A DNA stretch of 46,565 bases from Candidatus Hermodarchaeota archaeon. Its GTDB lineage: Archaea; Asgardarchaeota; Lokiarchaeia; Sigyniarchaeales; SOKP01. The stretch's first letter is position 1. Each line of letters opens with the position of its first letter. Made by a program: the position numbers and the translations under genes. This document shows, piece after piece, positions 1 through 41,215 of this stretch. The stretch spans positions 1 to 46,565 of the forward strand of contig JBHLLP010000028.1 of assembly GCA_048885525.1 (NCBI GenBank), in the 5' to 3' direction. Below the pieces are notes generated by a model that was not told the origin of the DNA, made no database searches, and saw only the letters and a list, made by a program, of their open reading frames with translations.

Positions 1-435
<435 letters not shown>

Positions 436-4941: not shown

Positions 4942-5967
4942 GTGTCAAAAATTAACCATATTGAAAAGAGTAGGGAAAATACTGAAAGATGTCCTGAATG
5001 CAAAGGTAATATAATCACAAATAGTTTTGAGAAAATATGTAAAGAATGTGGACTAGTAATTAATAAATTTTTTAGAGAATCTGCTTTCATTTTTAACGAT
5101 TTTAAAAGTAATAATAATCTAAGTAAACAATATGTAGCATTAGGGGAACGAACAGATTTTATAGGTGGATTAGGCTCTTTTATTGATTACGAAAAATCTA
5201 AATACTTAAAAGACAAAAATGGAAAACTTCTACCTCCAAACGAGCAAAAACTATTCAGAAGACTAAAAAAAAGTTATGCTCAATTCCTACGAATCAAAAA
5301 TCATGAAACAGAATATAGAGTTTTTAATATTTTAAACAAAATTTCACTGTATCTCAATTTGAGTAAAAATATAAGAAATAATGCTGCTTACTATTTCAAA
5401 AGAATTATTAAAGGAGAAGAGAAAGTAATTAATAACATCTCATTAATCGCTTTTTGTATTTTCTTTGCAGCGAGGAAAGAATATCAGAATGCTCCTATAA
5501 CCATTAATGAGATTTCTAAGGCTTTTCAAAATTTTGGTCATCGCGTAAACCCTAGATTGATTTTAAGAGATGGAATAAGATATAAACATTATTTGAATAA
5601 TGCATCATCTCCTCATAAAAGCGAAGATTATCTGATTAGACTTGTAGATGAAGTTATAAAACATAAATGTTTAATGCTGAGATTGGAAAAAAAAGGAGTT
5701 TTGTGGTCTATAACTGAATTTCAAAATAAATTAGTTATGAAATGTCGTGAAATTTTAAAAGAATTGCCGTTGTGGAATAGAGGTGGGAGAAATCCCTTTA
5801 TTTTAACAGGGGCGATAATATATCTAGCAGATAAATTATTAAGTAAAGAATACAATCAAAAAACTGTCTTAACTCAAAAAATCATATCTGAGGCCACTAA
5901 AATTGCAGAATACTCTATAAGAGATCATTATGTGAATCTTTTAAAGCCAATTTTTATGTCTAAATAG
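4942..5967 (+). CDS. tfb: Divergent transcription factor B (TFB/TFIIB) paralog
   Basis: Zn ribbon CPECKG...CKECG; cyclin repeats 'ISLYLNLS...AAYYF' and 'GGRNPFILTGAIIYLA...TQKIISEATKIAEYSIRDHY'. Confidence 0.85.
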   Translation: MSKINHIEKSRENTERCPECKGNIITNSFEKICKECGLVINKFFRESAFIFNDFKSNNNLSKQYVALGERTDFIGGLGSFIDYEKSKYLKDKNGKLLPPNEQKLFRRLKKSYAQFLRIKNHETEYRVFNILNKISLYLNLSKNIRNNAAYYFKRIIKGEEKVINNISLIAFCIFFAARKEYQNAPITINEISKAFQNFGHRVNPRLILRDGIRYKHYLNNASSPHKSEDYLIRLVDEVIKHKCLMLRLEKKGVLWSITEFQNKLVMKCREILKELPLWNRGGRNPFILTGAIIYLADKLLSKEYNQKTVLTQKIISEATKIAEYSIRDHYVNLLKPIFMSK

Positions 5968-6141
5968 CCAATTTAAATTTTTTAATAAGAAATAAATAAT
6001 AATCTAAAGAATCCTTGATTATCACATGATAAATTATTCATTATTATTGATGAGTATAAATTTAGGTTATATTAAATTTTTTAAAATATATAAATTTATT
6101 AATAATAGCATTTTTGAATACTAAAAAAACACTAACTTTCT

Positions 6142-6253
6142 GCTTCTGTAGTGTAGTTCGGTCAATCTAATCCAGTTTTTAATGTTCTGTGATTAGGATT
6201 AAGCATACGAGGCTCTCACCCTCGGGACCCGGGTTCGAATCCCGGCAGAAGCA
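6142..6253 (+). tRNA. tRNA-Glu(CTC) with 37-nt intron (6166-6202) in the D-loop region (about position 21/22)
   Basis: Acceptor stem GCTTCTG/CAGAAGC; anticodon arm CGAGG-CTCTCAC-CCTCG; T-loop TTCGAAT. BHB motif: GGTC/GATT helix with AAT and AAG bulges and CTAATC/GATTAG stem. Spliced length 75 nt. Confidence 0.92.
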
Positions 6254-29846: not shown

Positions 29847-30476
29847 TCAAAGAAAAAATGGAAGATGTGTATTGAACCCAAATAATATTCCTCCTATTAC
29901 ACCAGATATTAAAAATACTATAGTTCTTCTAGGGTTATTAATGATACGGTTATTATTAATCAAATACCAAAGACTTAATAATATGTCTAAAAAAGAGATT
30001 AATGAACCAAATGAAAAACAATAATATATCGTTTGTTCGTGTGGGAATTGAGAAGCACTAATATCAGATAATCCATTTAGATAAAAAGGATCTATCCCAC
30101 TAAACGTAATAAAATTGTATATCAGTTTATCTGGTAATGGATCGAGAAGAATAATTAAAAAATGAGTGATATAATTAAATAAAATTCCAAATCCTAATAC
30201 TATATACGAACATCCTAGAATTAATCTAGGTTTCATTAGATAATCTTCTTCTTCTGTGTTAATTGATCTAGTCTCCCTATAAATCCCCCTTAATCTTAAT
30301 AAAGTCAATATTCCAATAAATAAAATGATAAAAACAAAAATATATTTCATGTATTTATAAAAAATTAGAAAAAAGCTATTAAACGCAATACACCAGTTTT
30401 CCAAGCCTTCAACTATGCCTCTAAACACGTCCTCTAGAGATAAAATTATCTTGTTGATTTGCCCAAAAAGAACCAT
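29847..30476 (-). CDS. Hypothetical membrane protein (about 4 TM)
   Basis: Multiple hydrophobic helices. Confidence 0.75.
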   Translation of the reverse strand: MVLFGQINKIILSLEDVFRGIVEGLENWCIAFNSFFLIFYKYMKYIFVFIILFIGILTLLRLRGIYRETRSINTEEEDYLMKPRLILGCSYIVLGFGILFNYITHFLIILLDPLPDKLIYNFITFSGIDPFYLNGLSDISASQFPHEQTIYYCFSFGSLISFLDILLSLWYLINNNRIINNPRRTIVFLISGVIGGILFGFNTHLPFFL

Positions 30477-30530
30477 CGCATAATATTATCTAATATAGCG
30501 TATATAAAGTCTACAAAATATTAAATTAGA

Positions 30531-30962
30531 TTAAGAAATTTTTTCACATTCTTCATTGATTACTTTCATCGTTGCATTAAAATCTTGCCACCAATCTTGC
30601 CCTTGCTGAGCAACCAACATTGGGTCTATCTTATGAGTGTCTAAACATCGGATTTCTTCTTTATGAGACTTTATTTTTCCTTTCCATATTTGAGAAATTA
30701 TATTTTGTAAATTAATTTTTACTTTTTTAACGAGCTCTTCATATGGAACCGATACATCTTCCGTTTTCTGTAATCTTTGAAGCTGGTCAAATTTCACTTT
30801 CTCTTTTGCCCGATTTAAATCACTACAACTGATTTTTATCGAAAAAGCTTCGTCTTTGCCCCATTTACAAAACTTTTGAATTTCACATAACGAACAATAA
30901 CTTTCAAAACTAATAGTGTAATCTTCAAGACCAACTATAGAATAATTTAAAATTTTTGGCAT
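30531..30962 (-). CDS. Hypothetical protein with Cys cluster (CxxC-x4-C...C)
   Basis: 'YCSLCEIQKFCKWG...ISCSD'. Confidence 0.75.
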   Translation of the reverse strand: MPKILNYSIVGLEDYTISFESYCSLCEIQKFCKWGKDEAFSIKISCSDLNRAKEKVKFDQLQRLQKTEDVSVPYEELVKKVKINLQNIISQIWKGKIKSHKEEIRCLDTHKIDPMLVAQQGQDWWQDFNATMKVINEECEKIS

Positions 30963-31119
30963 TTTTCTTCGTTTGTTAATTAATAATAAAATTCTCCTTT
31001 AACCTATATATTTTAAACTGTTTAAGATATTATTATTTTTATTTGTGTGATGACAATTAGTAACAACATCTAATTTTCCGACAACTTGAAGTTTAATACA
31101 AGGTTATAAGGATTTGTCA

Positions 31120-31156
31120 TAAAAAAATAGAGAAAATAGATTCCGCATAGCGGAAT
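31120..31156 (-). terminator. Hairpin ATTCCGC-TAT-GCGGAAT followed by T-rich tract
   Basis: 7-bp stem right after the micro-ORF stop, then CTATTTTCTCTATTTTTTT. Confidence 0.6.
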
Positions 31157-31191
31157 TATTTTGCTGGGGGTTCTCCAATACCATAAGGCAT
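31156..31191 (-). CDS. Putative 11-aa micropeptide MPYGIGEPPAK, copy 1
   Basis: GGAGGAG SD (31198-31204) 6 nt before ATG; TTTAAATA box at 31287-31294; ORF identical in the second copy. Confidence 0.65.
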   Translation of the reverse strand: MPYGIGEPPAK

Positions 31192-31531
31192 TTTATTCTC
31201 CTCCAAAATGAATTAGTTATGTAATTGTAATCAGATTATTTATTTTCAGTACGTTTCAAGCTATCATTAATTATTATTGAATTTGTTATTTAAAGCCCTT
31301 TGAAATTTAATAAAAATTGGTGGTTTTTTTATAATTAGGATTAGGCTAATATGAAAATTATATATGAAAATATCAAAATAATAAGCGTAAAATCTATGAC
31401 TTAAATTAAATAACCCCAATAATTTGAAATATAACTATCAAAAAATATAAAAATTAAATAATTCAATATTTTTAATGATTAGATCTTTAAAAACCCTAAT
31501 CAAAACTGGCACAAAATTATTGTAAATTCTA

Positions 31532-34500
31532 ATGATAAGGTTAAATCTAGACTTTATTATAAACACTTCAATAGAGAGTATATTTTCAAATTTACAAGCT
31601 ATTTTTGAGAAAATTCTTCAAGAATTCAAATCATATCTTAAGTTCGATTTAATATATTCAAATATAAAAATCATTATTAGTGAAAATGACCACAATAATT
31701 ATGCTCTAGAAAAGGACTTTTTTAAAATTGGAGTAATTAAGGCTCAAAAGAATAATTCTCTAACAATTTATATATCAAGTAGTTATAAAAAATTTATAAG
31801 AGTAATTTTATTACGTGAAGCGTATAAGTGCTTTATTCCATTGCAGTTACAGGAGAATGAAATAGTTAATATATTTATCAATCAAAAAGTCGAAAATGAC
31901 CTTCAAAAATCTGAATATATCGAAGACTGGAAGGAATTTAAAAGAAAAAGTGTTGTAAGCTATGAATTCATGGAAGCTGAATTCGATCGCCTAGAAAAGT
32001 TCTTAAAACAAACAAGTACAGAAAATCGACCCAGTCCATTCCAGTTTTTCTTCTCATATATAAGAAGGAATGTTGAATTGCTTAAAGATACTAGAGAAGA
32101 GTTCTTTTACTTAGATAAAAAAAGTTTTTATGACAAACTATTTGAAGATTATACGCGCAGATACACAAATTATCCTAATGAAACCTTAGAAACTATAAGA
32201 ATAATCGCTGAATTATTTTATAAAATTAAAAATTATCGCTCTTTATTAGATTACCAAAACCATTTTAAAGAATTTAAAGAATTTGGACTTATTAAAACGA
32301 ATTTAAGTCTTAGAAAATTTACAGAAAATATGCAATGGATAAAAAGTAATACTAATATAGCCCCAAATTACAGCATGAACTGGTTTGAATTAGATCTTAT
32401 ATCAATATTATGTATTATGAAATTTCATCCATTGATTAAAACTAAAGAAATCCTTAAAATCATCAAACAAATACCCTTTTTCATTTGGCCAAATTTTTCA
32501 AAAAATAATTTTGGAGTAGAGGTTATGGGATACTTTCTCTTACCAAAAACCTATTTAAATGATTTAACAAATTTTCTTAAAAAATTGGAGTTGGATGGTC
32601 TTGTTATTAAACTTGGAATATACATCATTAATAAGGCGGCGAATTTATTAAATTTAAACTGTGCTAGGGGAAGTACCATAATCCTTAATCCTAATAAAAC
32701 ATATTATAAAAAAGAATATGAACTCGAAGTTAATACAGATTTTAGTTATGGAAAATCTAAATTAAAACTCTCACTTCTTGATTGGCTTTTAATTGATAGG
32801 ATTCGTCAAGTTTCAATAACAGGGTTGGGATTTGAGAGAAAATTAGAAACACTGAGAGCATTAAAGTCTGATCTTCTCAATGAGATTCAAAGTCAAAGTA
32901 AATTAATTAATAATCTTAAAGAAAATCTTAATAAGATTCAAAATTCGCCCGTTCTTAGAAATAGAGTTTTAACATTAATAGATAATAATAAATCCTATGG
33001 ATTTTTTTACATTAAGCAAATGTTATTTGAACATTTAACTTTAGCTGAAATGATAAATAATGTGCTCGTTGAAAATTATTCTATAAACAATTATTTTGAA
33101 TTTCAAGAATTTAATAGCAGATATGGTCTTTTTAAAACAATTCAAGATAATATACTACTTAATAAATTCGGGAAAAAGTTGATAAAAACTTTATATTTTA
33201 AATCTAAAAAAAAATTTAAAAAAAATCTCGAAGAATATCATTACTTTTATAACTTATTTAAATCTTTTTATGATCTCAAGTTATTTAATTTAGAATCAAT
33301 TAAATCAGTAATTTTAGATAAAACGTTAATACAGAAAATTTATCAATCAAAAGAAAAGAAACTAAAAGAAATATATGAAAATTACAAAATCTCCAAAATT
33401 TCTTATCAATTAATAGAAAGGAGGTTAGAAGATTTTTTATATAATGATCCTCCCATCATTCAGCCAAATTTATTAAACACAATAATGATTATTGCGCGTC
33501 TTACAAACTATTATCCTATGTTTATCTTGAAAGACACTTCACAAACAAGAGAAATAATTGAAAAGATAAAATATTTATTTCCAAGAGTTTATATTATAGA
33601 AATATTGGAATATACAACCCAGGATAAATTCATTTATTTACGTTTGTTAATGCCAAATTTAAGATTGAAAGAGAAACAAATATTATATTCAATTTTCTAT
33701 AATCAATTTAAAGAAAATTTAATTATGAGTAAATCATTTCTTTACAGTGGTTTTTCAGAAGCTTTTTCAAGAAAAGATTTTTATGATTTAGAACGAGAGG
33801 ATTTTTTTTACACAAAAGATTTATTCGACAGATTTTATCCCTATGTTCGAAAAATTTTAAGAACAGAAGTAAAGCCCCTTTCAGAATCAAAAAGTAATCC
33901 TCAAGAAAATTTATGGGGAAGTGAAAGAAATTTTTCATATCTAATTAATGAGGTTGAAACTAGAATTTCAAAGGAGCATATTGACTTAAAATTTAGTAAT
34001 CTAGACAAGCTGTTAGATTTTCATAAAAATTTACATAAAATTTTATTTCACATAGAGAACTTTAAGTACTCTAAAACTGAGTATTTCTTTAAGAATTGTA
34101 TAAAATCTGTAAAAATAATTCCGTCATTTCAATCATTTGGATTTGGGCAATATTTTTTATACTTTTATTCAACAGATTTAAATCAAATAGACTTTAAACA
34201 TTTTTTACATAATTCATTTCAAAAAGTAAAATTTCAAGCAAGTATTGATAATTCTAATTCATTTTTGATAAATTTGGCCATACAGAAATCCAAATAATTC
34301 TTTATTAAATTGGCTAACTAAATCTAAAAAAGCCATTCGAGAATATTGTTTATTCTACATCAAGAAGCTTTATCAAATTTTTCATTTTAATTATAACCTT
34401 AGTGTTAATGAATGGGATTTAAACCCAAATCGTTTTAAAATTTACTTTCAAAATATTCTATTTAATCCAGAGTATAAATTGACGATTCCCGACCTTAAAG

Positions 34501-35132
34501 AATTTAATATTGGTGATCTAAACATTTCAGAGTATTTTACTCCAGACTCATCAGAATTTAAAGCGTTAACCGACTTATATAATTGTAAATCTATTGATAT
34601 TAAATCATATTTAGGAACTCGAAATTATACTATTATTAATCAAATTATTGAATTACTAGAGAAAATGCTGGTTTTTCCTTTTATTTCAGTAAAGAATCTT
34701 GATTTAAAGGAAAAAATTTATTTAATTTTACCTAATGTGAAAAAAGAGCATATTGAAACAATTCTGAAAATCTTTAGTTTTTTTAATATTGGATATATCT
34801 ATGAAATTGAAGGAGAATATTATATTTACGGATTTACAGAAGAAAAGAGTTTTGAAAATGGATTACTGATTAAACTCTATCTTCCCGATTGCCAACTTGA
34901 TGAATTTTTTTTGTTGTTCGATTCAATATTTGAATATTTTGAGATCAAACATTATATAATCTTAAATGATCTTGTTGATGGAAAATATTTACTTACATCT
35001 ATTTATAAGAACTTAGAGTTCTTGAAGTCATATAACCCATTAAAAAATTTAATTTGGAATAAGAAAGATAAAAAATGGATGAATCATAAACTATTTACAG
35101 ATAAATTTGAAAAGAGATATCCTCCCCTTTAA
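31532..35132 (+). pseudogene. Large (~1,200-codon) protein with repeated Lrp/AsnC-like wHTH-RAM modules and degenerate zincin-like N-terminus; frameshift near 34270
   Basis: Track ORF 31532-34297 ends just after 'SFLI'. The alternative frame 'WPYRNPNNSLLNWLTKSKKAIREYCLF...' is open from about 34275 into ORF 34479-35132. Lrp-linker-like segments 'APNYSMNWFELDL', 'IIPSFQSFGF', 'FPFISVKNLDL'; 'ILLREAYK'. Confidence 0.7.
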
Positions 35133-35459
35133 TTGGATAATTTTTAGGTTGGCTTTAAGATGTCTTACGGTTGTATAATCTGAATTGAAATTAGATCTTT
35201 TTTAGTTAATTATATAAATTAAAGATTTCCATAGCTGTTCATAGAGTCTTAATAAAAAATATGGGATTAATGGATAATAGGGCTTAACTTCCAGCTATTA
35301 AGATTAAAAATTCTGTTAGGATGAAAGTGGATTAACATTTTTTGAGAGGGATTTAAATAACTGAATTAATAATCATTAACGATAGCTTGAATCCTACTAT
35401 AAAGATACTGTCTGATAATGTTTATATTATTAATTAAAAAATTTTTGGAGTGCTGTAAA

Positions 35460-35495
35460 ATGCCTTATGGTATTGGAGAACCCCCAGCAAAATAA
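35460..35495 (+). CDS. Putative 11-aa micropeptide MPYGIGEPPAK, copy 2
   Basis: ATG CCT TAT GGT ATT GGA GAA CCC CCA GCA AAA TAA, preceded by GGAGTG. Confidence 0.65.
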   Translation: MPYGIGEPPAK

Positions 35496-35530
35496 TTCCA
35501 CTATGTGGAATATATTTATCTTTTTTTTTA
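35495..35530 (+). terminator. Hairpin ATTCCAC-TAT-GTGGAAT followed by poly-T
   Basis: 7-bp stem with a compensatory change relative to the left copy, then ATATTTATCTTTTTTTTT. Confidence 0.6.
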
Positions 35531-35568
35531 ATATTTTTAAAAAATGGTAAAAACTCTCCTAGGGGTAA

Positions 35569-36840
35569 TTAAGATTTAATAAAAATTAGTGGTATAAGAG
35601 AGAAGAGCGATAAAGAACAAGCTATTAAAATTATAAAATCTGTTGAAATGAAAGAAGATAAAAAAGTCCCCAATGGGATAAAAATTATGCTAGCTAAGGC
35701 TATAGCGACCCTTAGGACTTGATAAGAGGTTGTTTGATATTTTACATTTCTACAGAAATTAATGTGTAATGATATATAATTTAGCATTAAAATTCCTGAT
35801 ACAAACCAAGATAAAGAATATATTATTAATAAAAATACTATATTTATTGAGAAAACCATAAGAAGAGTTATACAAATATACATAGAGTTCGTTATAAGTA
35901 TAATTTTTTTTCTCTCTAACTTTTTTGCTGTCCACTTCCCTATGAAATATCCGAGAGTATTTAGCAAAAGAAAAAATAGATAACTTCCAGATAATAAACT
36001 AATCCCTAATTGTCCATATTTAGATAATATCCAATCTCCAAATGGATATGCATATAGTTTATCACTAAATATCATTATAAAAGAAAGAGTTAAGAGGACG
36101 ATTTGATAATAGTTAAATCTACTATTATTTCTATCAGTGTTTTGTACTTTTTTCTTTCCATTAATAAGATTTGTATAATTTTCGCAAAATAGTGAAAATA
36201 TTATAGGACTTAATAAAATTCCTCCAATTAAAAAGAAATTAGACCATAAAGCTAAATTAAAAATATCAGAGACAATATATAAAAATATTAAGGGGGGAAT
36301 ATATGCACCAATATTAGAAGAAATATTGATTATTATTAAGATCTTGTCTTTCATCTCTTCTGTTGTTGATGATTCTATAATTAACCTCCCCATACCAACT
36401 TTAATTGCTTCATGAGTGAATAAATTTAACCCTAATAAAATTCCAAAAAGAAATAAAGTAGAAAATAGACACAATGCACCAATAAAGCTTAAAATGAAGG
36501 AAATTATCATAAAACTTAAAATCTTTCTTTTATGAGATGGGAATCTGTCATAAATAAGTGCAAACAAGGGCGCTAAAAAAAGGAAGGAATATGTGAGAAT
36601 TTGAATAAACGCGAGGTTACTTCTATTGACATCTAAAATAGATAATAAATATATAGGTAAGTAAACTGTGAGATAAGAAACAGAAAGACTTAGAGTAAAA
36701 TAAACAATAAAAAATCTAATATAATTAAGTGAAGGCTTTTTGGGAAATGGTGTAATTAATAATTCTTTTGCAGGGCTTACATCTGAAGATTTAACCAAAC
36801 TCTCTTGTTTCATTTCAAGTTTATATCTTAAGCGCTTCAT
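35569..36840 (-). CDS. MFS transporter
   Basis: About 12 TM helices; 'IYDRFPSHKRK' and 'GKWTAKKLERKK' MFS loop motifs. Confidence 0.85.
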   Translation of the reverse strand: MKRLRYKLEMKQESLVKSSDVSPAKELLITPFPKKPSLNYIRFFIVYFTLSLSVSYLTVYLPIYLLSILDVNRSNLAFIQILTYSFLFLAPLFALIYDRFPSHKRKILSFMIISFILSFIGALCLFSTLFLFGILLGLNLFTHEAIKVGMGRLIIESSTTEEMKDKILIIINISSNIGAYIPPLIFLYIVSDIFNLALWSNFFLIGGILLSPIIFSLFCENYTNLINGKKKVQNTDRNNSRFNYYQIVLLTLSFIMIFSDKLYAYPFGDWILSKYGQLGISLLSGSYLFFLLLNTLGYFIGKWTAKKLERKKIILITNSMYICITLLMVFSINIVFLLIIYSLSWFVSGILMLNYISLHINFCRNVKYQTTSYQVLRVAIALASIIFIPLGTFLSSFISTDFIILIACSLSLFSLIPLIFIKS

Positions 36841-37013
36841 TTATAAAACTCTTAAAATTTATTCTCAACTCTTATAATCTTTATAATTATGAATTTAAAA
36901 ACTGCAACAATTTGTTAAACAGTTTACTAAAAAGTAATTGCTTTAATACAGAAGTAAAGATTAAACAAATTTTATCAATTTCGCAAAGTAAGAAAAAAAA
37001 GAAACTAAATTAT

Positions 37014-37178
37014 CTAATAACAGATTCTTTCTCTGGTCCGTAATCTTTTTTTTTGATCATATTTTTCAAGAGAGTCCAAAGTTCCACCACATACATGACA
37101 AAAATTACATTTTAACTTTACTTCTATCCAAAATCTACAATTAGGGCATTGAATATAAACAATATTATGAAAATACAT
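37014..37178 (-). CDS. Small Zn-ribbon protein (54 aa); not in ORF track
   Basis: MYFHNIVYIQCPNCRFWIEVKLKCNFCHVCGGTLDSLEKYDQKKRLRTRERICY*. Confidence 0.55.
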   Translation of the reverse strand: MYFHNIVYIQCPNCRFWIEVKLKCNFCHVCGGTLDSLEKYDQKKRLRTRERICY

Positions 37179-37292
37179 AGCATATTGTCTATAATTCTCT
37201 ATTTAAATTACGACTTATTTTTTGAAGGTCATAAAATTTAAACATCATATAAGATATTTTTATAAGTATAAGACATTTATTATATGAAAATT

Positions 37293-37367
37293 GGACCTAT
37301 AGCCTAGCCTGGATAGGGCGTCGGACTTCTAATCCGAAAGTCGCAGGTTCGAATCCTGCTAGGTCCG
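37293..37367 (+). tRNA. tRNA-Arg(TCT)
   Basis: GGACCTA/TAGGTCC acceptor stem; TCGGA-CTTCTAA-TCCGA anticodon arm; GGTTCGAATCC. Confidence 0.96.
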
Positions 37368-37369
37368 CT

Positions 37370-38527
37370 CTATTTTGAAGCTTTTATTTTTAAATCAACT
37401 ACAACCAATTCAGATTTTGGTGAATAGTGTTTTACGATTTTAGAATCAATAATGGACTCAATTTCCCAATTAAAATGAGTTAATTCTACCTCAAGATTCT
37501 TAAAAGTTTTTTCTATAGGATTTGGTTTTTCTGAGAATTGATAAAAATGCAAAATACCACCAGATTTTTTCATTAAGAAGCAAGCTACGTCAATGAATTT
37601 GATTGAGTCTTCGGGTAAATTCATGATTATTCTACTTGCTTTATTGTATAAAGATTGACCTAACTGGTTTTTAGGAGCAAGTAGATCTTTAACATCAATG
37701 ATGGTGGGGAAAATTTCTCCCTTTAGATTATTTAATTCAATATTTTGCTTGAGATATTCATAAGCGTTAGGGTTAACATCAAAAGGATAAATTTTGACAT
37801 TCTTATTCTTGGCAATTTGAATAGAGAAAGTTCCGACTCCAGCAAACATATCAATTATTAACTCGTTCTCCATTATCTCGCTTGATACAATCCTTCGTCG
37901 TTCAAAAACTAATCTTGGAGAGAAGTATGTATTCTTAACGTCAAGCTTGAAAATACAATCATTTTCTTTATGAGTTGTCTCAGATTTATCTTCTCCATAT
38001 AAAACCTTTAATTCTCGTAAACGATATCTTCCCTTTATTTGACTTTTTTTCTCATAAACGGTTTTAACATTTTTATTTACGCTTGGTATCGCTTTAGCGA
38101 TTATCTGTTTGTAAGCATTGAATTTTTTATTACTTATGTGATTATACTTACCGAATTCGATAATAGCAATATGTCCAACAATATCATATGATTTTGGAAT
38201 TAATTCTGAATATTTATCTGGTATTTTGCCTTCTAATGCTTCCTGAAGACTTTTATATTTATAATTTTCATTCGGCACTCCTTCTTTGGAAATTATTTCA
38301 AAATTAATTTTTTTATCTACTAATGAAGTTACTTTTTTGATTAGAATTTGGTCAATAACTATTGGAAATAGTAGATTATCATTCTCATGTAAAATTTTAA
38401 ATTTTTGATTGATAAATTGAGTATTTTTAAACTTATTTTTTAAAAATTTAATAAAAGTTTGTCCATCTTCTTCTTTAAATTTAATATATAAGATCTTAGC
38501 CTGGTTATTGTTTCCCATTTCTCTCAT
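37370..38527 (-). CDS. trm5: Trm5/Met-10+ family tRNA (guanine-37-N1) methyltransferase
   Basis: SYDIVGHIAI, HKENDCIFKLDV, YFSPRL, DMFAGVGTF, RIIMNLP. Confidence 0.88.
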   Translation of the reverse strand: MREMGNNNQAKILYIKFKEEDGQTFIKFLKNKFKNTQFINQKFKILHENDNLLFPIVIDQILIKKVTSLVDKKINFEIISKEGVPNENYKYKSLQEALEGKIPDKYSELIPKSYDIVGHIAIIEFGKYNHISNKKFNAYKQIIAKAIPSVNKNVKTVYEKKSQIKGRYRLRELKVLYGEDKSETTHKENDCIFKLDVKNTYFSPRLVFERRRIVSSEIMENELIIDMFAGVGTFSIQIAKNKNVKIYPFDVNPNAYEYLKQNIELNNLKGEIFPTIIDVKDLLAPKNQLGQSLYNKASRIIMNLPEDSIKFIDVACFLMKKSGGILHFYQFSEKPNPIEKTFKNLEVELTHFNWEIESIIDSKIVKHYSPKSELVVVDLKIKASK

Positions 38528-38942
38528 TTATTTCAAATATAATTGATAATTCTTTTCCTGGAATTTTTAGTTTTTCAATTAGTTCACGACTTATTTCATT
38601 TGATGATTTAGTACAATTTATCAGAACTGTTCTATCACAGATAAAATTGCTTTTACGAAAAACCATGTCATTTTTATCCAATAATCTTAATTCTTTACTT
38701 CCAAAACCATAGAAGGAATCTTGGAGTTTTCCTAATTTTAAAGTGATTTTTATTTTACTTCCATCTTTTATTTTTTTTTTCAAAGTTTGATTTAAATCAT
38801 AACAACCTTTTGAAGCATTAATTCCTATAATACAATTTCCTTTCGTTGTTAAAGTCTTTTCTTTAGTAATTTCTATAGTCGTACTGTGCGTACAAAGAAT
38901 ATTTTCATGTCCATAAGCAGAAATGTTTTCTAATATCACCAT
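38505..38942 (-). CDS. DUF371 family protein
   Basis: 'AYGHENILCTHSTTIEITKE..LT.KGNCIIGI', 'MVFRKSNFICDRT'. Confidence 0.88.
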   Translation of the reverse strand: MVILENISAYGHENILCTHSTTIEITKEKTLTTKGNCIIGINASKGCYDLNQTLKKKIKDGSKIKITLKLGKLQDSFYGFGSKELRLLDKNDMVFRKSNFICDRTVLINCTKSSNEISRELIEKLKIPGKELSIIFEINERNGKQ

Positions 38943-38947
38943 GTACT

Positions 38948-40594
38948 TTATTCATCTCTAAAAAATTGGAGTAAATCGTTTAAACTAGTAAAACTAGAAT
39001 AATTTGATTGAAATTTAGATTTTAAAATAGGATCTAATCCTCGAATTGGATTAACAGAGTTAAATTCTACAACTTCATTATATTGATTTATGTATTTCTC
39101 GGGAATTAGCACTCCACATTTATGATAATTTTTATAATTTTGAATAATGAATACGTTTGATTTCTTTACTGAATTTTCATAAAGTTCGTCGTTTTTCCCT
39201 ACAGGAGAGATGGATTCAAATTGACCCATCGGATATGTACTTATTAATTCAAGTGGAATTATTCCAAAATATGAAGAATTAAAAACAATATGGATTTCCT
39301 CTCGAGAGATCATAGTGTTATCATTAATCTGTTTAAGCCAATTTTGAATTGTTGAAGAATTTTCTCCTCTAGCATCTAATTCCGGCAAAATTAATAAAAA
39401 CTTTACATCTTCTGGAACCCGATAATTACTACTAATCCTTTTCAAATATCTACTAATCAGAGGTCTATAAACATTTTCAAAGGAAACAAATAATCGACCC
39501 CTTTTCTTATAGACTTTTTCATATAATTCAAACATCGGAGTTTCTTTCTTTAAGAATTGTGCTGCTTTAACTAAATTTGGGTGAGCTCTTATACGTTGAT
39601 CTACTAATTCCCAAAGATTCCCCTCTCTTATTGCTTGTCTGATTGTTTTTAACTCAGAAAAAGAAATATATAGATTATGTTTAGCTAAAAGTTTAATTCT
39701 TAAATTATCTTCATATTTCTTTAGCTCATGTGGGCTCAATTCTGTGCAAATGGGACAATGACATGGAAATTCTTCTAAATCTTCAAGATTTTTAGTACCT
39801 GTAGATAATGTAAAATACCTATTTTCTTTTGCATATAAAATATATGCAGCTGAATCCATTAAATCACATCCACATGCGACGGCCAAGGAAAAAAACTGAG
39901 GTAACCCTAAACCAAACATGTGCAGTGGTTTACTTTGGTTTATACTTTTTTTCACATTCAATAAGATTTGAATAGTTACATCAAATCTGTAATCAAGAAA
40001 AGATTTTACTAATCCCCCTATCGCATAGACACCAAAATCTAATTTATTCATTTCATTAATACATGATGTTAAAAGATCATCATATAGACCTCCATGAATT
40101 GGCCCAATCCATGCGCAATTTTCATTGGATCGTCTTTTGATATTCTCTTTTGCCCTATCAATTGTAGCCTCAACCTTTGTTTTTGCGATTTCGTATGTAT
40201 CATCTGGTTGTACGGGGATATCAAGGATTACCGGAAAATCTGATTCAATCCTTTCTTGGAAGGCTTCGATCTCTTCAGCTTCAATCTTCATATTAGACTT
40301 GTTATACATATATTGCTGAAAAGCTCCACTATCAGTAGCAATAAGGCCATCAAAATCAATAAATTGATGAATTTTTTTCTTTATGAGGCTTTCTTTTATA
40401 GTTTCATTTTGAAAAAGGATATACGCGTTCGTAAAAATAGCTTGAGCACCAAAACTTTTTAAATCCGAAGGTGGAATTACATTTTTAAAAGGATGTACTA
40501 CAGGAAAAAGATTAGGGGTAATCATCTGCTTTTCATTAACTTCTAGTTTTCCAATTCTCCCTAAAGCGTCTACATCTAAAATTTCATACTTCAT
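38948..40594 (-). CDS. tgtA: Archaeosine tRNA-guanine(15) transglycosylase
   Basis: GRIGKL, TPNLFPV, TDSGAFQ, LDIP, LHMFGLG, DSAAY, CHCPIC, HNL; no obvious PUA domain. Confidence 0.93.
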   Translation of the reverse strand: MKYEILDVDALGRIGKLEVNEKQMITPNLFPVVHPFKNVIPPSDLKSFGAQAIFTNAYILFQNETIKESLIKKKIHQFIDFDGLIATDSGAFQQYMYNKSNMKIEAEEIEAFQERIESDFPVILDIPVQPDDTYEIAKTKVEATIDRAKENIKRRSNENCAWIGPIHGGLYDDLLTSCINEMNKLDFGVYAIGGLVKSFLDYRFDVTIQILLNVKKSINQSKPLHMFGLGLPQFFSLAVACGCDLMDSAAYILYAKENRYFTLSTGTKNLEDLEEFPCHCPICTELSPHELKKYEDNLRIKLLAKHNLYISFSELKTIRQAIREGNLWELVDQRIRAHPNLVKAAQFLKKETPMFELYEKVYKKRGRLFVSFENVYRPLISRYLKRISSNYRVPEDVKFLLILPELDARGENSSTIQNWLKQINDNTMISREEIHIVFNSSYFGIIPLELISTYPMGQFESISPVGKNDELYENSVKKSNVFIIQNYKNYHKCGVLIPEKYINQYNEVVEFNSVNPIRGLDPILKSKFQSNYSSFTSLNDLLQFFRDE

Positions 40595-40621
40595 TTTGCA
40601 TTCTTCAGGAATTTATAATTA

Positions 40622-41215
40622 TTAGTCAAAGAAGTCTTTTAATCGATCTTCTTCAAATAACTTTTGAAGCCAATCTACTTTTCCAATCTTATAATTTTTT
40701 CCATTTTTACTTTCAACTACAATTTCGACAATTATCCTCGCTACAGTTTCTATATTAATACTTGTTGTATCGATTTCAAAAATGGGTGCTTTTATCTTCT
40801 TTTGAATAAAATAATTGACACAATTACCTAGAATTTCTGCTTGAACATTTTCAGTAATTTTTTTTATATCATATTTTTTTTTTTCTAGTCTTCTAAATAA
40901 TTCATCTGGATCACATCTTAAAATGAATACATAATCAATAAATTTTTTTGGAATAATATCTGAGAAATGACTTTCTATTATCAGGTAAGGTGGATTCTCT
41001 CGCTTAATATCAGCAATTTTATTTATAATATAGGGTAGAAATAATTCAAAATCTACAATATATGTTTTTCTTTCTTGATCATACTCAAATGAAAAATCAC
41101 CCGAAATTGCTAATTCATTCAAGGAAATTATTTTGGCATTAATTAAATTAGAGATCTCTTTTGCTACTGACGTCTTTCCGGAACCAGGTGTGCCGGAGAT
41201 GATGATAATTTTCAT
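40622..41215 (-). CDS. AK6/Fap7-type adenylate kinase
   Basis: ISGTPGSGKT, IIESH, LRCDP, ENVQAEIL, VDW. Confidence 0.9.
   Translation of the reverse strand: MKIIIISGTPGSGKTSVAKEISNLINAKIISLNELAISGDFSFEYDQERKTYIVDFELFLPYIINKIADIKRENPPYLIIESHFSDIIPKKFIDYVFILRCDPDELFRRLEKKKYDIKKITENVQAEILGNCVNYFIQKKIKAPIFEIDTTSINIETVARIIVEIVVESKNGKNYKIGKVDWLQKLFEEDRLKDFFD

Follow-up and report, generated by a model that had tools for sequence, protein, structure and literature searches.

Introduction

The microcin C cluster comprises the heptapeptide gene mccA, the gene for MccB, a ThiF-like adenylyltransferase, and the gene for MccC, an exporter of the major facilitator superfamily (MFS), whereas the leader-peptide attenuators and arrest peptides, such as tnaC, pyrL and trpL, are short translated open reading frames (ORFs) of another kind. 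Peptide genes that adjoin the gene of a receptor make up the RRNPP-type cassettes of Firmicutes and phages, i.e. Rgg-SHP, PlcR-PapR, NprR-NprX, Rap-Phr and AimR-AimP, as well as the 'Aloha' systems of Paenibacillus (PMC7425212). Here we analyze a 46,565-nucleotide (nt) stretch of DNA from Candidatus Hermodarchaeota archaeon (contig JBHLLP010000028.1; hereinafter, the window), in which two copies of an 11-codon gene flank the gene for a protein of approximately 1,200 amino acids (aa), the giant protein, next to a gene for an MFS transporter. We show that these micro-genes belong to a family of 8-11-codon genes with longer, precursor-like relatives that is coupled to the lineage-specific giant protein and, usually, to the MFS transporter, and that represents a real, conserved and previously undescribed genetic element. 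The initial annotation of the locus, made from the sequence of the window, knew of no described archaeal system of this kind, and this assessment stands: no published description was found in the literature, no described family matches the parts of the system by sequence and, to our knowledge, no such peptide/receptor system has been described in Archaea.

In its logic, the locus is closest to Rgg-SHP and the other RRNPP systems, and in gene size and MFS partner, it is closest to microcin C, but it lacks the defining features of both. As in the RRNPP cassettes, a tiny peptide gene with a promoter of its own lies beside, and often divergent from, the gene for a large cytoplasmic protein with DNA-binding-type modules; there are many paralogous pairs per lineage, with the peptide differing from pair to pair, and a transporter is involved. 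Peptide gene and receptor-like gene are adjacent here, too, and the pairs diversify together. However, the RRNPP receptors have a TPR-type fold, whereas the giant protein is predicted to combine a zincin-like domain with three Lrp/AsnC-like modules; most of the peptides are 8-11 residues long, without a pro-region or signal sequence, and precursors of about 37 aa occur in one clade only; and the host is an Asgard archaeon, for which signalling and binding are putative activities. Microcin C offers a rare precedent of a gene of about 10 codons or fewer that stands alone and is functional, with an MFS exporter in the same cluster. It differs from the locus described here in that a Pfam scan detected no MccB-like enzyme among the neighbours in the window (a ThiF gene is found only beside a distant paralog, at locus L110), that the C-terminal residue of the peptides is K, A, P, G or M rather than Asn, and that the giant neighbour is predicted to be non-catalytic and regulator-like. 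The attenuators share with these micro-genes a short ORF with a conserved Pro near the stop codon, followed immediately by a hairpin and a U-tract; unlike them, the micro-genes have no conserved co-directional downstream gene, vary in orientation and look like autonomous genes, and no alternative structure was found, single folds showing the terminator hairpin only.

Results

Two inverted micro-gene units flank the giant gene

Two inverted units of about 190 base pairs (bp) lie at 31305-31120 (minus strand) and 35341-35530 (plus strand), on either side of the giant gene (31532-35132), and both read outward from it. Each includes a promoter, consisting of a B recognition element (BRE) and a TATA box, a leader with a Shine-Dalgarno (SD) sequence, the micro-ORF, a hairpin and a T-tract, as follows.

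31120..31305, minus strand: unit A, complete micro-gene transcription unit with BRE/TATA, leader, SD, 11-codon ORF, hairpin and T-tract
31287..31294, minus strand: TATA box of unit A, TTTAAATA, preceded by the purine-rich AAAGGGC; predicted transcription start at the G at ~31265
31198..31204, minus strand: SD sequence of unit A, GGAGGAG, 6 nt upstream of the ATG
31156..31191, minus strand: micro-ORF A, ATG to TAA, 11 codons, MPYGIGEPPAK
31140..31156, minus strand: hairpin A, 7-bp stem AATTCCGC/GCGGAATT with the loop TAT, beginning inside the stop codon
31121..31139, minus strand: T-tract A (CTATTTTCTCTATTTTTTT), likely an archaeal terminator, with a tail conserved across genomes
35341..35530, plus strand: unit B, second copy of the micro-gene transcription unit
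35352..35359, plus strand: TATA box of unit B, TTTAAATA; predicted transcription start at the G at ~35381
35447..35452, plus strand: SD-like sequence of unit B, GGAGTG, 7 nt upstream of the ATG
35460..35495, plus strand: micro-ORF B, the same 11 codons, MPYGIGEPPAK, within the 44-nt identical run
35495..35511, plus strand: hairpin B, stem AATTCCAC/GTGGAATT, with one G-C pair of hairpin A replaced by A-T
35512..35530, plus strand: T-tract B, putative terminator together with hairpin B
31532..35132, plus strand: giant protein gene, ~1,202 aa once the 5 bases that public contigs carry behind 34271 are added
35569..36840, minus strand: MFS transporter gene (MFS_1, 1.5e-14), convergent with the giant gene

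The two units are 78% identical over 186-190 nt (E = 1.2e-37 in a search of the whole genome). Both open with a purine-rich stretch and TTTAAATA, and a conserved GATAGCTTGAA follows 21 nt downstream, where, given the usual TATA-to-start spacing, an archaeal transcript is expected to start; the block of TATA box and GATAGCTTGAA of unit A is also present in genomes G001 and G062. The identity between the units is unevenly distributed: 42/51 positions in the promoter segment (the first 51 nt), 37/64 positions in the leaders, which are 74 and 79 nt long and AT-rich (23-25% G+C), and all positions in a 44-nt run (35456-35499, corresponding to 31195-31152) that consists of the last four bases of the leader, the 11-codon ORF and the first four bases of the hairpin. 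The hairpins, TTCCGC-TAT-GCGGAA in unit A and TTCCAC-TAT-GTGGAA in unit B, differ by a single compensatory change, from G-C to A-T, and the micro-ORF is the sole GC-rich, C-rich stretch of an otherwise AT-rich transcript. Recomputation thus reproduced the two inverted units with all the parts, the spacing and the identity values reported in the initial annotation. When 35495-35530 is read on the minus strand, the hairpin of unit B is followed by UUAUUUUG, so that hairpin and T-tract may double as a bidirectional terminator for the convergent MFS transcript.

No third copy of the unit was detected in the 3.58-Mb genome of the window (G000), either by BLAST or with a back-translated pattern, and a genome-wide scan for the combination of promoter, SD, short ORF, hairpin and T-run yielded nothing convincing beyond units A and B. 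In the 408 kb of G000 DNA outside long frames, there are three micro-ORFs of the form 'MP..P' with a T-run, namely, the two units and one ORF (C2:92718) that has neither a promoter nor a hairpin and was taken as a chance occurrence. Both the match between the units and their uniqueness are far beyond chance. The initial annotation had further placed the peak of conservation on the tiny ORF. The identity itself was confirmed in G000, but part of it, and part of the whole-unit identity in G001, is probably due to conversion of one inverted copy by the other, and the copies differ elsewhere. The assembly graphs and contigs break within the 44-nt repeat, and contig joints with short sides (<31 nt) were set aside. 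The diverged copy pairs of G061 and G069 still retain the frame and the Pro codons.

Units beside close orthologs of the giant gene carry a coding signature

We searched 54 genomes of the genus for related units, using DNA search, the hairpin pattern and a covariance model. Further units were found in G001, G062, G061, G036, G069, G032, G009 and G034, so that a unit recurs beside every close ortholog of the giant gene, in 9 genomes of the genus. Every covariance-model match with E < 1e-3 has a close ortholog of the giant gene (48-63% identity) no more than a few hundred nt away. Thus, the units are strictly tied to the giant-protein family and are not a dispersed repeat unlinked to it, which was one of the outcomes that the initial annotation had named as refuting its proposal. 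The matches with E > 1e-3 (G061_C37, G074, G019, G028 and G011) look like chance, and two matches to the hairpin pattern within coding sequence (G012 and G068) are unrelated.

The encoded peptides are MPAGYTDPPAK, MPGSFGEPPTK, the pair MPGTITPPLA and MPCTITPPSA, MPGTDKIIPLA, the pair MPGQGPVQPSA and MPGQGPVQPCA, MPSSGTVQPSA (with a GTG start), MTASGVVDPRA and MPGSAVVQPSA. Across the 12 related units beside the orthologs, the start column contains ATG or GTG and the stop column TAA or TAG; the ORF is 11 codons long, or 10 in both copies of G061 owing to a 3-nt gap; and GGAGG or GGGG is present at a conserved spacing upstream of the start in 11 of 13 related units. Between the two copies of G061, 6 codons differ, 4 of them synonymously (P, T, P and P), and codon differences that are exclusively synonymous amount to 16% in the frame of the ORF compared to 5.5-8.7% in the shifted frames. 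Within the peptide, constraint is apparent on the initial M-P, on Pro at position 8-9 and on the length of the frame. With start, stop, frame and SD retained in the relatives and the Pro codons changing only synonymously, the proposal that the units are dedicated genes for a tiny peptide is supported.

The hairpin is conserved as a pairing. In the correct register, 89.6% of the cells are paired across 7 units, as opposed to 21-56% for slid controls, and two of the pairs show changes on both sides; in G009, G032 and G069, the stem takes in the last codons together with the stop codon. Two other identities of the unit were considered and rejected: a C/D-box small RNA (sRNA), given that there is no C/D box and that CTGA is not conserved in G001, and a protein-binding DNA palindrome, given that the sequence of the stem varies freely while pairing is kept.

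The arrangement of the units is variable. Outward-reading pairs are found in G000, G001 and G061, single units in G062 and G036, and inward-reading pairs in G069 and G032, and the visible unit of G009 also reads inward, so that the outward orientation noted in the window does not hold as a rule. The unit is always intergenic and next to the giant gene, without a fixed downstream gene. This variability of the arrangement and the downstream gene argues against a general role as a leader or attenuator as well as against terminal repeats of a mobile element. The unit of G034 (L088, G034:C303, ~207-308) looks decayed: it has CAT as its second codon and has lost the SD, and its stop codon has become TCA, so that the frame runs on. 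In the same genome, the giant gene and the MFS gene are direct neighbours on a different contig, with no unit between them.

A peptide theme persists beside distant paralogs

The giant protein falls into several clades, and the type of the peptide tracks the giant-protein tree. In group A (genus g20), where the giant protein is ~43% identical to that of the window, the unit is an SD-led ORF of 8-9 codons located ~280 nt upstream of the giant gene, in divergent orientation, and encoding peptides such as MPGTADATP, MPATCDTTP, MPGNSGICP, MPNLAITP and MAPGCGNIIP; these ORFs are followed by nested hairpins with covariation and a T-tract. Among the 12 unique group A ORFs, Pro2 is encoded by CCT or CCA and the last Pro by CCC or CCT, i.e. 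the first two bases are invariant. Depending on the genome, the MFS gene either follows the group A unit in the same orientation or faces it. In group B, the peptides MPGWEGMP, MPASEGRP, MPGYEDWPVM and MPGAHEGHPIM are encoded just downstream of the giant gene, and in group C, the peptides MPYSGEIGG (two tandem copies) and MPSTGEGGG are encoded upstream of it. Groups 0 and A have a leader and an SD, whereas in groups B and C, a TATA-like box, TTTAAAA, is located only ~25 nt before the ATG, and hence the mRNAs are expected to be leaderless.

The 'LLREIY' clade contains two forms. One comprises the leaderless MRGGNDGSLP and MFRNGDGGIP, and the other consists of ORFs of ~37 aa in G077 (three in tandem), G065 and G072, with the pattern MKIRTK-SILLALLTAIS...G..GG.G(T/G)P, i.e. 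a basic (K/R), hydrophobic, signal- or transmembrane-like N-terminal part and a Gly-rich end. The ~37-aa ORFs resemble precursors, or secreted versions, of the same peptide theme. The precursor-like ORFs have no match in Pfam or NCBIfam, and a 40-aa member had no homologue in the protein collection searched. Their sites are L117 (G077:C1) 5301-6001, L126 5294-5404 and L127 754-873, in a clade that has no MFS neighbour.

Tandem units were also observed in other genomes. At L136 (G003:C20), two direct tandem MPGAHEGHPIM units at 5237-5272 and 5911-5946 enclose a fragment of the 3' end of the giant gene (G003:C20:110909-111205), an arrangement that is a local segmental duplication; two tandem units are present at L131 (G020) and L138 (G029) as well.

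Even where the DNA is unalignable, the peptides conform to a common theme: they are short, rich in Gly and other small residues, usually contain one acidic residue and have a Pro at or near the C-terminus. The strongest case for selection on the peptide, rather than on the RNA alone, is made by the persistence of this theme despite the lack of alignable DNA and the different modes of initiation.

The giant protein is predicted to combine a zincin-like domain with three Lrp-like modules

In the window, the frame of the giant gene is split into 921 aa and 217 aa by a frameshift near 34273. Contigs from four public sediment metagenome runs of one study, two of which may be the source of the window assembly, carry 5 extra bases, ATTTC, behind 34271, which join the two parts in a single frame and restore ...SFLIN-FI-WPYRNPN..., as in the orthologs. 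The missing ATTTC (window 34271-34276) is half of an ATTTC-ATTTG near-repeat, and the counts for the extra bases were 22.4/22.4 (X1), 16.3/16.3 (X3) and 6.1/13.1, about half (X4). Because the public contigs carry the frame-restoring bases, most of the population has an intact gene, and the break in the window represents either an error of the assembly or a variant present in a minority. The single large gene that had been described between the units is thus a frame of ~1,202 aa in the public contigs, but not in the window as assembled.

By profile search, the giant protein is present in 90 of the 102 sampled genomes of the same family (12 genera), and the search gave no match in 10 sister-family genomes or in the other families searched; its relatives are located on contigs of metagenome-assembled genomes of Promethearchaeota/Promethearchaeia (= Lokiarchaeia). 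The protein has no match in Pfam or NCBIfam (E ≤ 0.1), including HTH_AsnC and AsnC_trans_reg, or among PDB sequences, and the sole lead to Lrp/AsnC from the sequence is a weak ESM-feature score (0.80).

The domain assignments come from predicted structures. The AlphaFold model of the G062 ortholog (predicted local distance difference test, pLDDT, of 71) was used in an exhaustive search for structural matches. In this predicted model, residues 220-777 resemble the siroheme decarboxylase NirDL (4czc_A), which consists of two fused Lrp/AsnC-like modules (Z 13.6, 298/305 residues aligned), and residues 1013-1152 resemble Lrp (8q90_B, Z 7.3; 1ri7, Z 7.0); each predicted module consists of a winged helix-turn-helix (HTH) followed by a beta-alpha-beta-beta-alpha-beta RAM domain. 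Residues 14-213 of the G062 model match the catalytic domain of M1 aminopeptidases. A separate model of the N-terminal domain of the window protein (about residues 14-214; pLDDT 84) gave a list of matches in which almost all of the first ~45 were zincins (best Z 7.7), including F3, thermolysin, elastase, SprT-like proteins and minigluzincins, with CapP (7t5t) and BlaR1 (8exp) also among them; the atlas matches of the domain have a TM score of ~0.5. The HExxH site of the zincins is replaced by an invariant R95-E96 in 'LLRE[AI]Y', and the position of the second His is variable. Because an invariant R-E takes the place of HExxH, the domain lacks metal ligands, and with these replaced, a binding role is the most that would be expected of it. 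Altogether, the giant protein is predicted to consist of a His-less zincin-like N-terminal domain and three Lrp/AsnC-like modules. The initial annotation, which had proposed a pseudo-peptidase domain with multiple Lrp modules, is therefore supported at the level of predicted folds, with a middling score for the zincin.

The predicted HTH and RAM modules superpose on Lrp/AsnC regulators and on NirDL/AhbAB (4czc, 4czd, 8q90 and 1ri7), and two of them are arranged as in the fused NirDL; however, the giant protein shows no sequence match to these proteins, contains three modules per chain, long helical inserts and the N-terminal zincin-like domain, and is ~8 times the size of a normal Lrp. The combination of a thermolysin-like zincin fold with transcription-factor modules is reminiscent of the zincin-HTH pairs (ImmA/IrrE-type, CapP/CapH and BlaR1), but those contain active HExxH proteases that cleave a repressor, whereas the metal ligands are replaced here. 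A complex predicted for the N-terminal domain of the G065 paralog and the adjacent 36-aa precursor scored 0.23, against a mark of 0.32.

The MFS transporter and the gene neighbourhood

The MFS gene adjoins the giant gene, in convergent orientation, in all nine ortholog loci, such that the transporter noted beside the units in the window turned out to be a constant partner. The window MFS gene is the only member of its subfamily in G000, and its protein has no match among PDB sequences. More broadly, groups 0, A, B and C always have an MFS gene next to the giant gene; these MFS genes are mutually homologous, those beside groups A, B and C being 30-49% identical to that of the window. Two MFS subtypes (~408 aa and ~423-451 aa, with 31% vs 49% identity to that of the window) accompany the inward and the outward unit layouts, respectively.

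The other neighbours of the units in the window are TFB, two small proteins without assigned function, a tRNA and tRNA-modification-like genes. The module of giant gene and MFS gene is located between conserved blocks, namely, TFB with the 209-aa and 143-aa ORFs, and an operon of 385-, 145-, 548- and 197-aa ORFs (L100-L109 compared with window 29847-41215); its orientation and its side relative to these blocks differ between genomes. Two further neighbours were observed beside paralogs: a ThiF-family E1-like gene divergent from the giant gene in one clade (L110 5523-6647, in G076) and an ADP-forming acyl-CoA-synthetase-like gene (Succ_CoA_lig and CoA_binding) just downstream in group A and its sister clade (L075 6733-8184 and L124 5145-6608), which could hint at modification of the peptide or merely reflect local gene order. 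Elsewhere in the window, positions 1-193 (minus strand) contain the 5' part of an archaeal 16S rRNA gene that is truncated at the edge of the window, and an Rfam tRNA match of 112 nt at 6142-6253 overlaps the 71-nt tRNA-Glu identified by ARAGORN (6183-6253); the longer match may represent a 5' extension, an intron or an overlapping second match.

Discussion

We consider it likely that a translated, conserved micro-gene linked to the giant protein is real. That the micropeptide, the cognate giant regulator-like protein and the MFS transporter form a working system seems to us about evenly balanced, and the suggestion that the micropeptide acts as a ligand or signal is put forward tentatively, with the balance tilting somewhat against it. 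In the mechanism that we infer, from the start and end of the transcript through translation, removal of Met and peptide binding to the direction of transport and the regulatory output, each unit would be transcribed as an independent mRNA of ~150 nt, with a predicted start ~24 nt after TTTAAATA, that comprises a leader of 74-79 nt, the SD, the 11-codon ORF, a hairpin beginning at the stop codon and, as the terminator, a U-tract. This mRNA would be translated into the 11-residue peptide, and removal of the initiator Met, if it occurs, would give a 10-mer that starts with Pro; general peptide biochemistry suggests that Pro at both ends would shield the free peptide from exopeptidases. The peptide would be the cognate small partner of the adjacent cytoplasmic protein of ~1,200 aa, in which the predicted zinc-less zincin-like domain represents a fold whose cleft binds extended peptides and the predicted Lrp/AsnC-like HTH and RAM modules a fold of DNA-binding regulators controlled by small ligands. 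The giant protein could then act as a peptide-responsive regulator, while the MFS neighbour might carry the peptide, or a product derived from it, through the membrane. The three would make up a cassette of peptide, receptor-regulator and transporter that is comparable in logic to the RRNPP cassettes, although its components are unrelated to theirs.

Several observations weigh against this reading. Gene conversion between the inverted repeats would account for the identical 44-nt run of G000 and the identical units of G001 as well as selection does, and translation is deduced from comparative signals. Across the family, the middle codons vary about equally at all three positions, and only the ends of the peptide are clearly constrained at the amino acid level; the conservation at the 3' end of the ORF overlaps the hairpin in G009, G032 and G069 and thus could be partly RNA-structural; and one unit, that of G034, has neither a stop codon nor an SD. 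The peptides are hydrophilic, 8-11 residues long and carry no export signal, such that peptide transport by the MFS protein is a guess. For the giant protein, the structural matches of the N-terminal domain are middling (Z < 8), Foldseek against the PDB returned nothing at E ≤ 0.001 for either the whole model or the N-terminal domain, and the best match, NirDL, is an enzyme rather than a DNA-binding protein, so that the label 'regulator' is not secured.

Some of the same observations would also be accommodated if the act of translation, rather than its product, were what matters. A ribosome slowed at Pro-Pro or at Pro-stop would sit on the hairpin and alter termination or RNA stability and read-through, by a logic akin to that of the tnaC or pyrBI leaders, and might thereby report proline, aIF5A or the status of translation. 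Pro is indeed the most conserved residue and lies at, or no more than 3 residues from, the stop codon in nearly all versions, many of the peptides end in Pro-stop (MPGTADATP*, MPGWEGMP*, MRGGNDGSLP*), the hairpin begins in the stop codon or takes in the last codons, and some loci have a same-strand gene downstream, either the MFS gene (L068, L070, L072-L075 and L080) or the giant gene (G069 and G032). However, this downstream context is not conserved: in G000, what lies downstream of unit B is the 3' end of a convergent gene, in G001 and in G061, the two units both point at convergent genes, and the orientation of the unit relative to the giant and MFS genes flips between genomes. No alternative, anti-terminator pairing was found, the leader has no conserved structure and, because archaeal termination is thought to need only the U-tract, melting of the hairpin need not give read-through; we regard a translated sensor ORF as improbable. 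We judge equally improbable a precursor of the kind that gives rise to ribosomally synthesized and post-translationally modified peptides (RiPPs) or to microcin C, in which case the peptide would be modified and exported by the MFS protein and the giant protein would serve as a scaffold, regulator or immunity factor. The combination of a tiny gene and an MFS pump resembles mccA (7 codons) and mccC, one clade has tandem precursor-like ORFs of ~37 aa with a leader-like N-terminal part and a Gly-rich core, and, in other clades, the giant gene has as its neighbour a gene of the ThiF family (L110) or one resembling ADP-forming acyl-CoA synthetases (group A). These two neighbours are clade-specific, though, and may reflect synteny only; there is no modifying enzyme beside the units in the window, the giant protein has no catalytic domain and its zincin motif is missing the metal ligands, and the C-terminal Asn is absent from the peptides.

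Readings in which no peptide is made are weaker still. It is quite improbable that the unit is a non-coding sRNA of ~150 nt, in which the GC-richer 'ORF' would be a seed or a protein-binding segment and the frame would be incidental. The variability of all three positions in the middle codons of the ORF, the restriction of GC- and C-rich sequence to the micro-ORF and the RNA-type covariation of the hairpin would agree with such an RNA, but not the conservation of start, stop, frame length and SD, the 3-nt indel, the swaps between ATG and GTG and between TAA and TAG, or the leaderless versions that start exactly at the ATG; moreover, the nucleotides of the supposed seed are not conserved between groups, whereas the peptide-level theme is. 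The units matched no Rfam 15 family at the gathering threshold or at E ≤ 5, those of the window are no more stable than shuffled sequences beyond the terminator hairpin (z = -0.3 to -1.5), and RNAalifold on 12 units gave no consensus pairs, with the hairpins in different registers and the leaders poorly aligned. The lack of a global RNA structure and of an Rfam family argues against a structured non-coding RNA. We give hardly any credence to a DNA-level element, i.e. inverted repeats that are the ends of a mobile element or recombination sites inverting the giant gene. Two inverted copies do flank one gene, the orientation of the giant gene relative to the MFS gene and the flanks differs (G062 resembles G000 with the giant gene inverted), and assembly graphs break inside the 44-nt repeat. 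Yet, unlike transposon terminal repeats, the units are accompanied by no transposase-like domain, and no transposase or integrase fold was found at the locus; they occur at a single locus in G000, without dispersed copies; and, in most genomes, the same conserved blocks of housekeeping genes border the locus. Furthermore, most paralog groups have one unit, so that repeats are not required, the inward and outward layouts cannot arise from each other by inversion between the repeats, and the coding signatures would be left unexplained.

Genes of 8-11 codons escape annotation pipelines, and very few of them have a known function. The comparative evidence by itself makes a strong case for a whole family of such micro-genes that is tied to a giant protein and often to a dedicated transporter and, even if the arrest-peptide or RiPP reading were correct, the family would be a conserved, previously unannotated genetic element. 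With related peptide genes next to relatives of the giant protein in many genomes, the locus is a strong candidate for a new system of peptide and receptor in Asgard archaea. If a ligand-receptor relationship holds, the combination of a dead zincin with three Lrp-like modules would be a new receptor architecture, and the natural orthogonal peptide/receptor pairs can be tested with synthetic peptides and recombinant protein, without growing the organisms. At its broadest, the proposal is that one family of Lokiarchaeia (Promethearchaeia) evolved its own ribosomal-peptide system of communication or regulation, with unprocessed peptides of 8-11 residues or, in one clade, secreted precursors of ~37 aa, cognate giant receptor-regulators, a dedicated MFS transporter and several orthogonal pairs per genome. 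We consider this possible but rather unlikely; if true, Archaea would gain their first described system of the peptide-pheromone type, encoded by some of the shortest protein-coding genes known to be functional.

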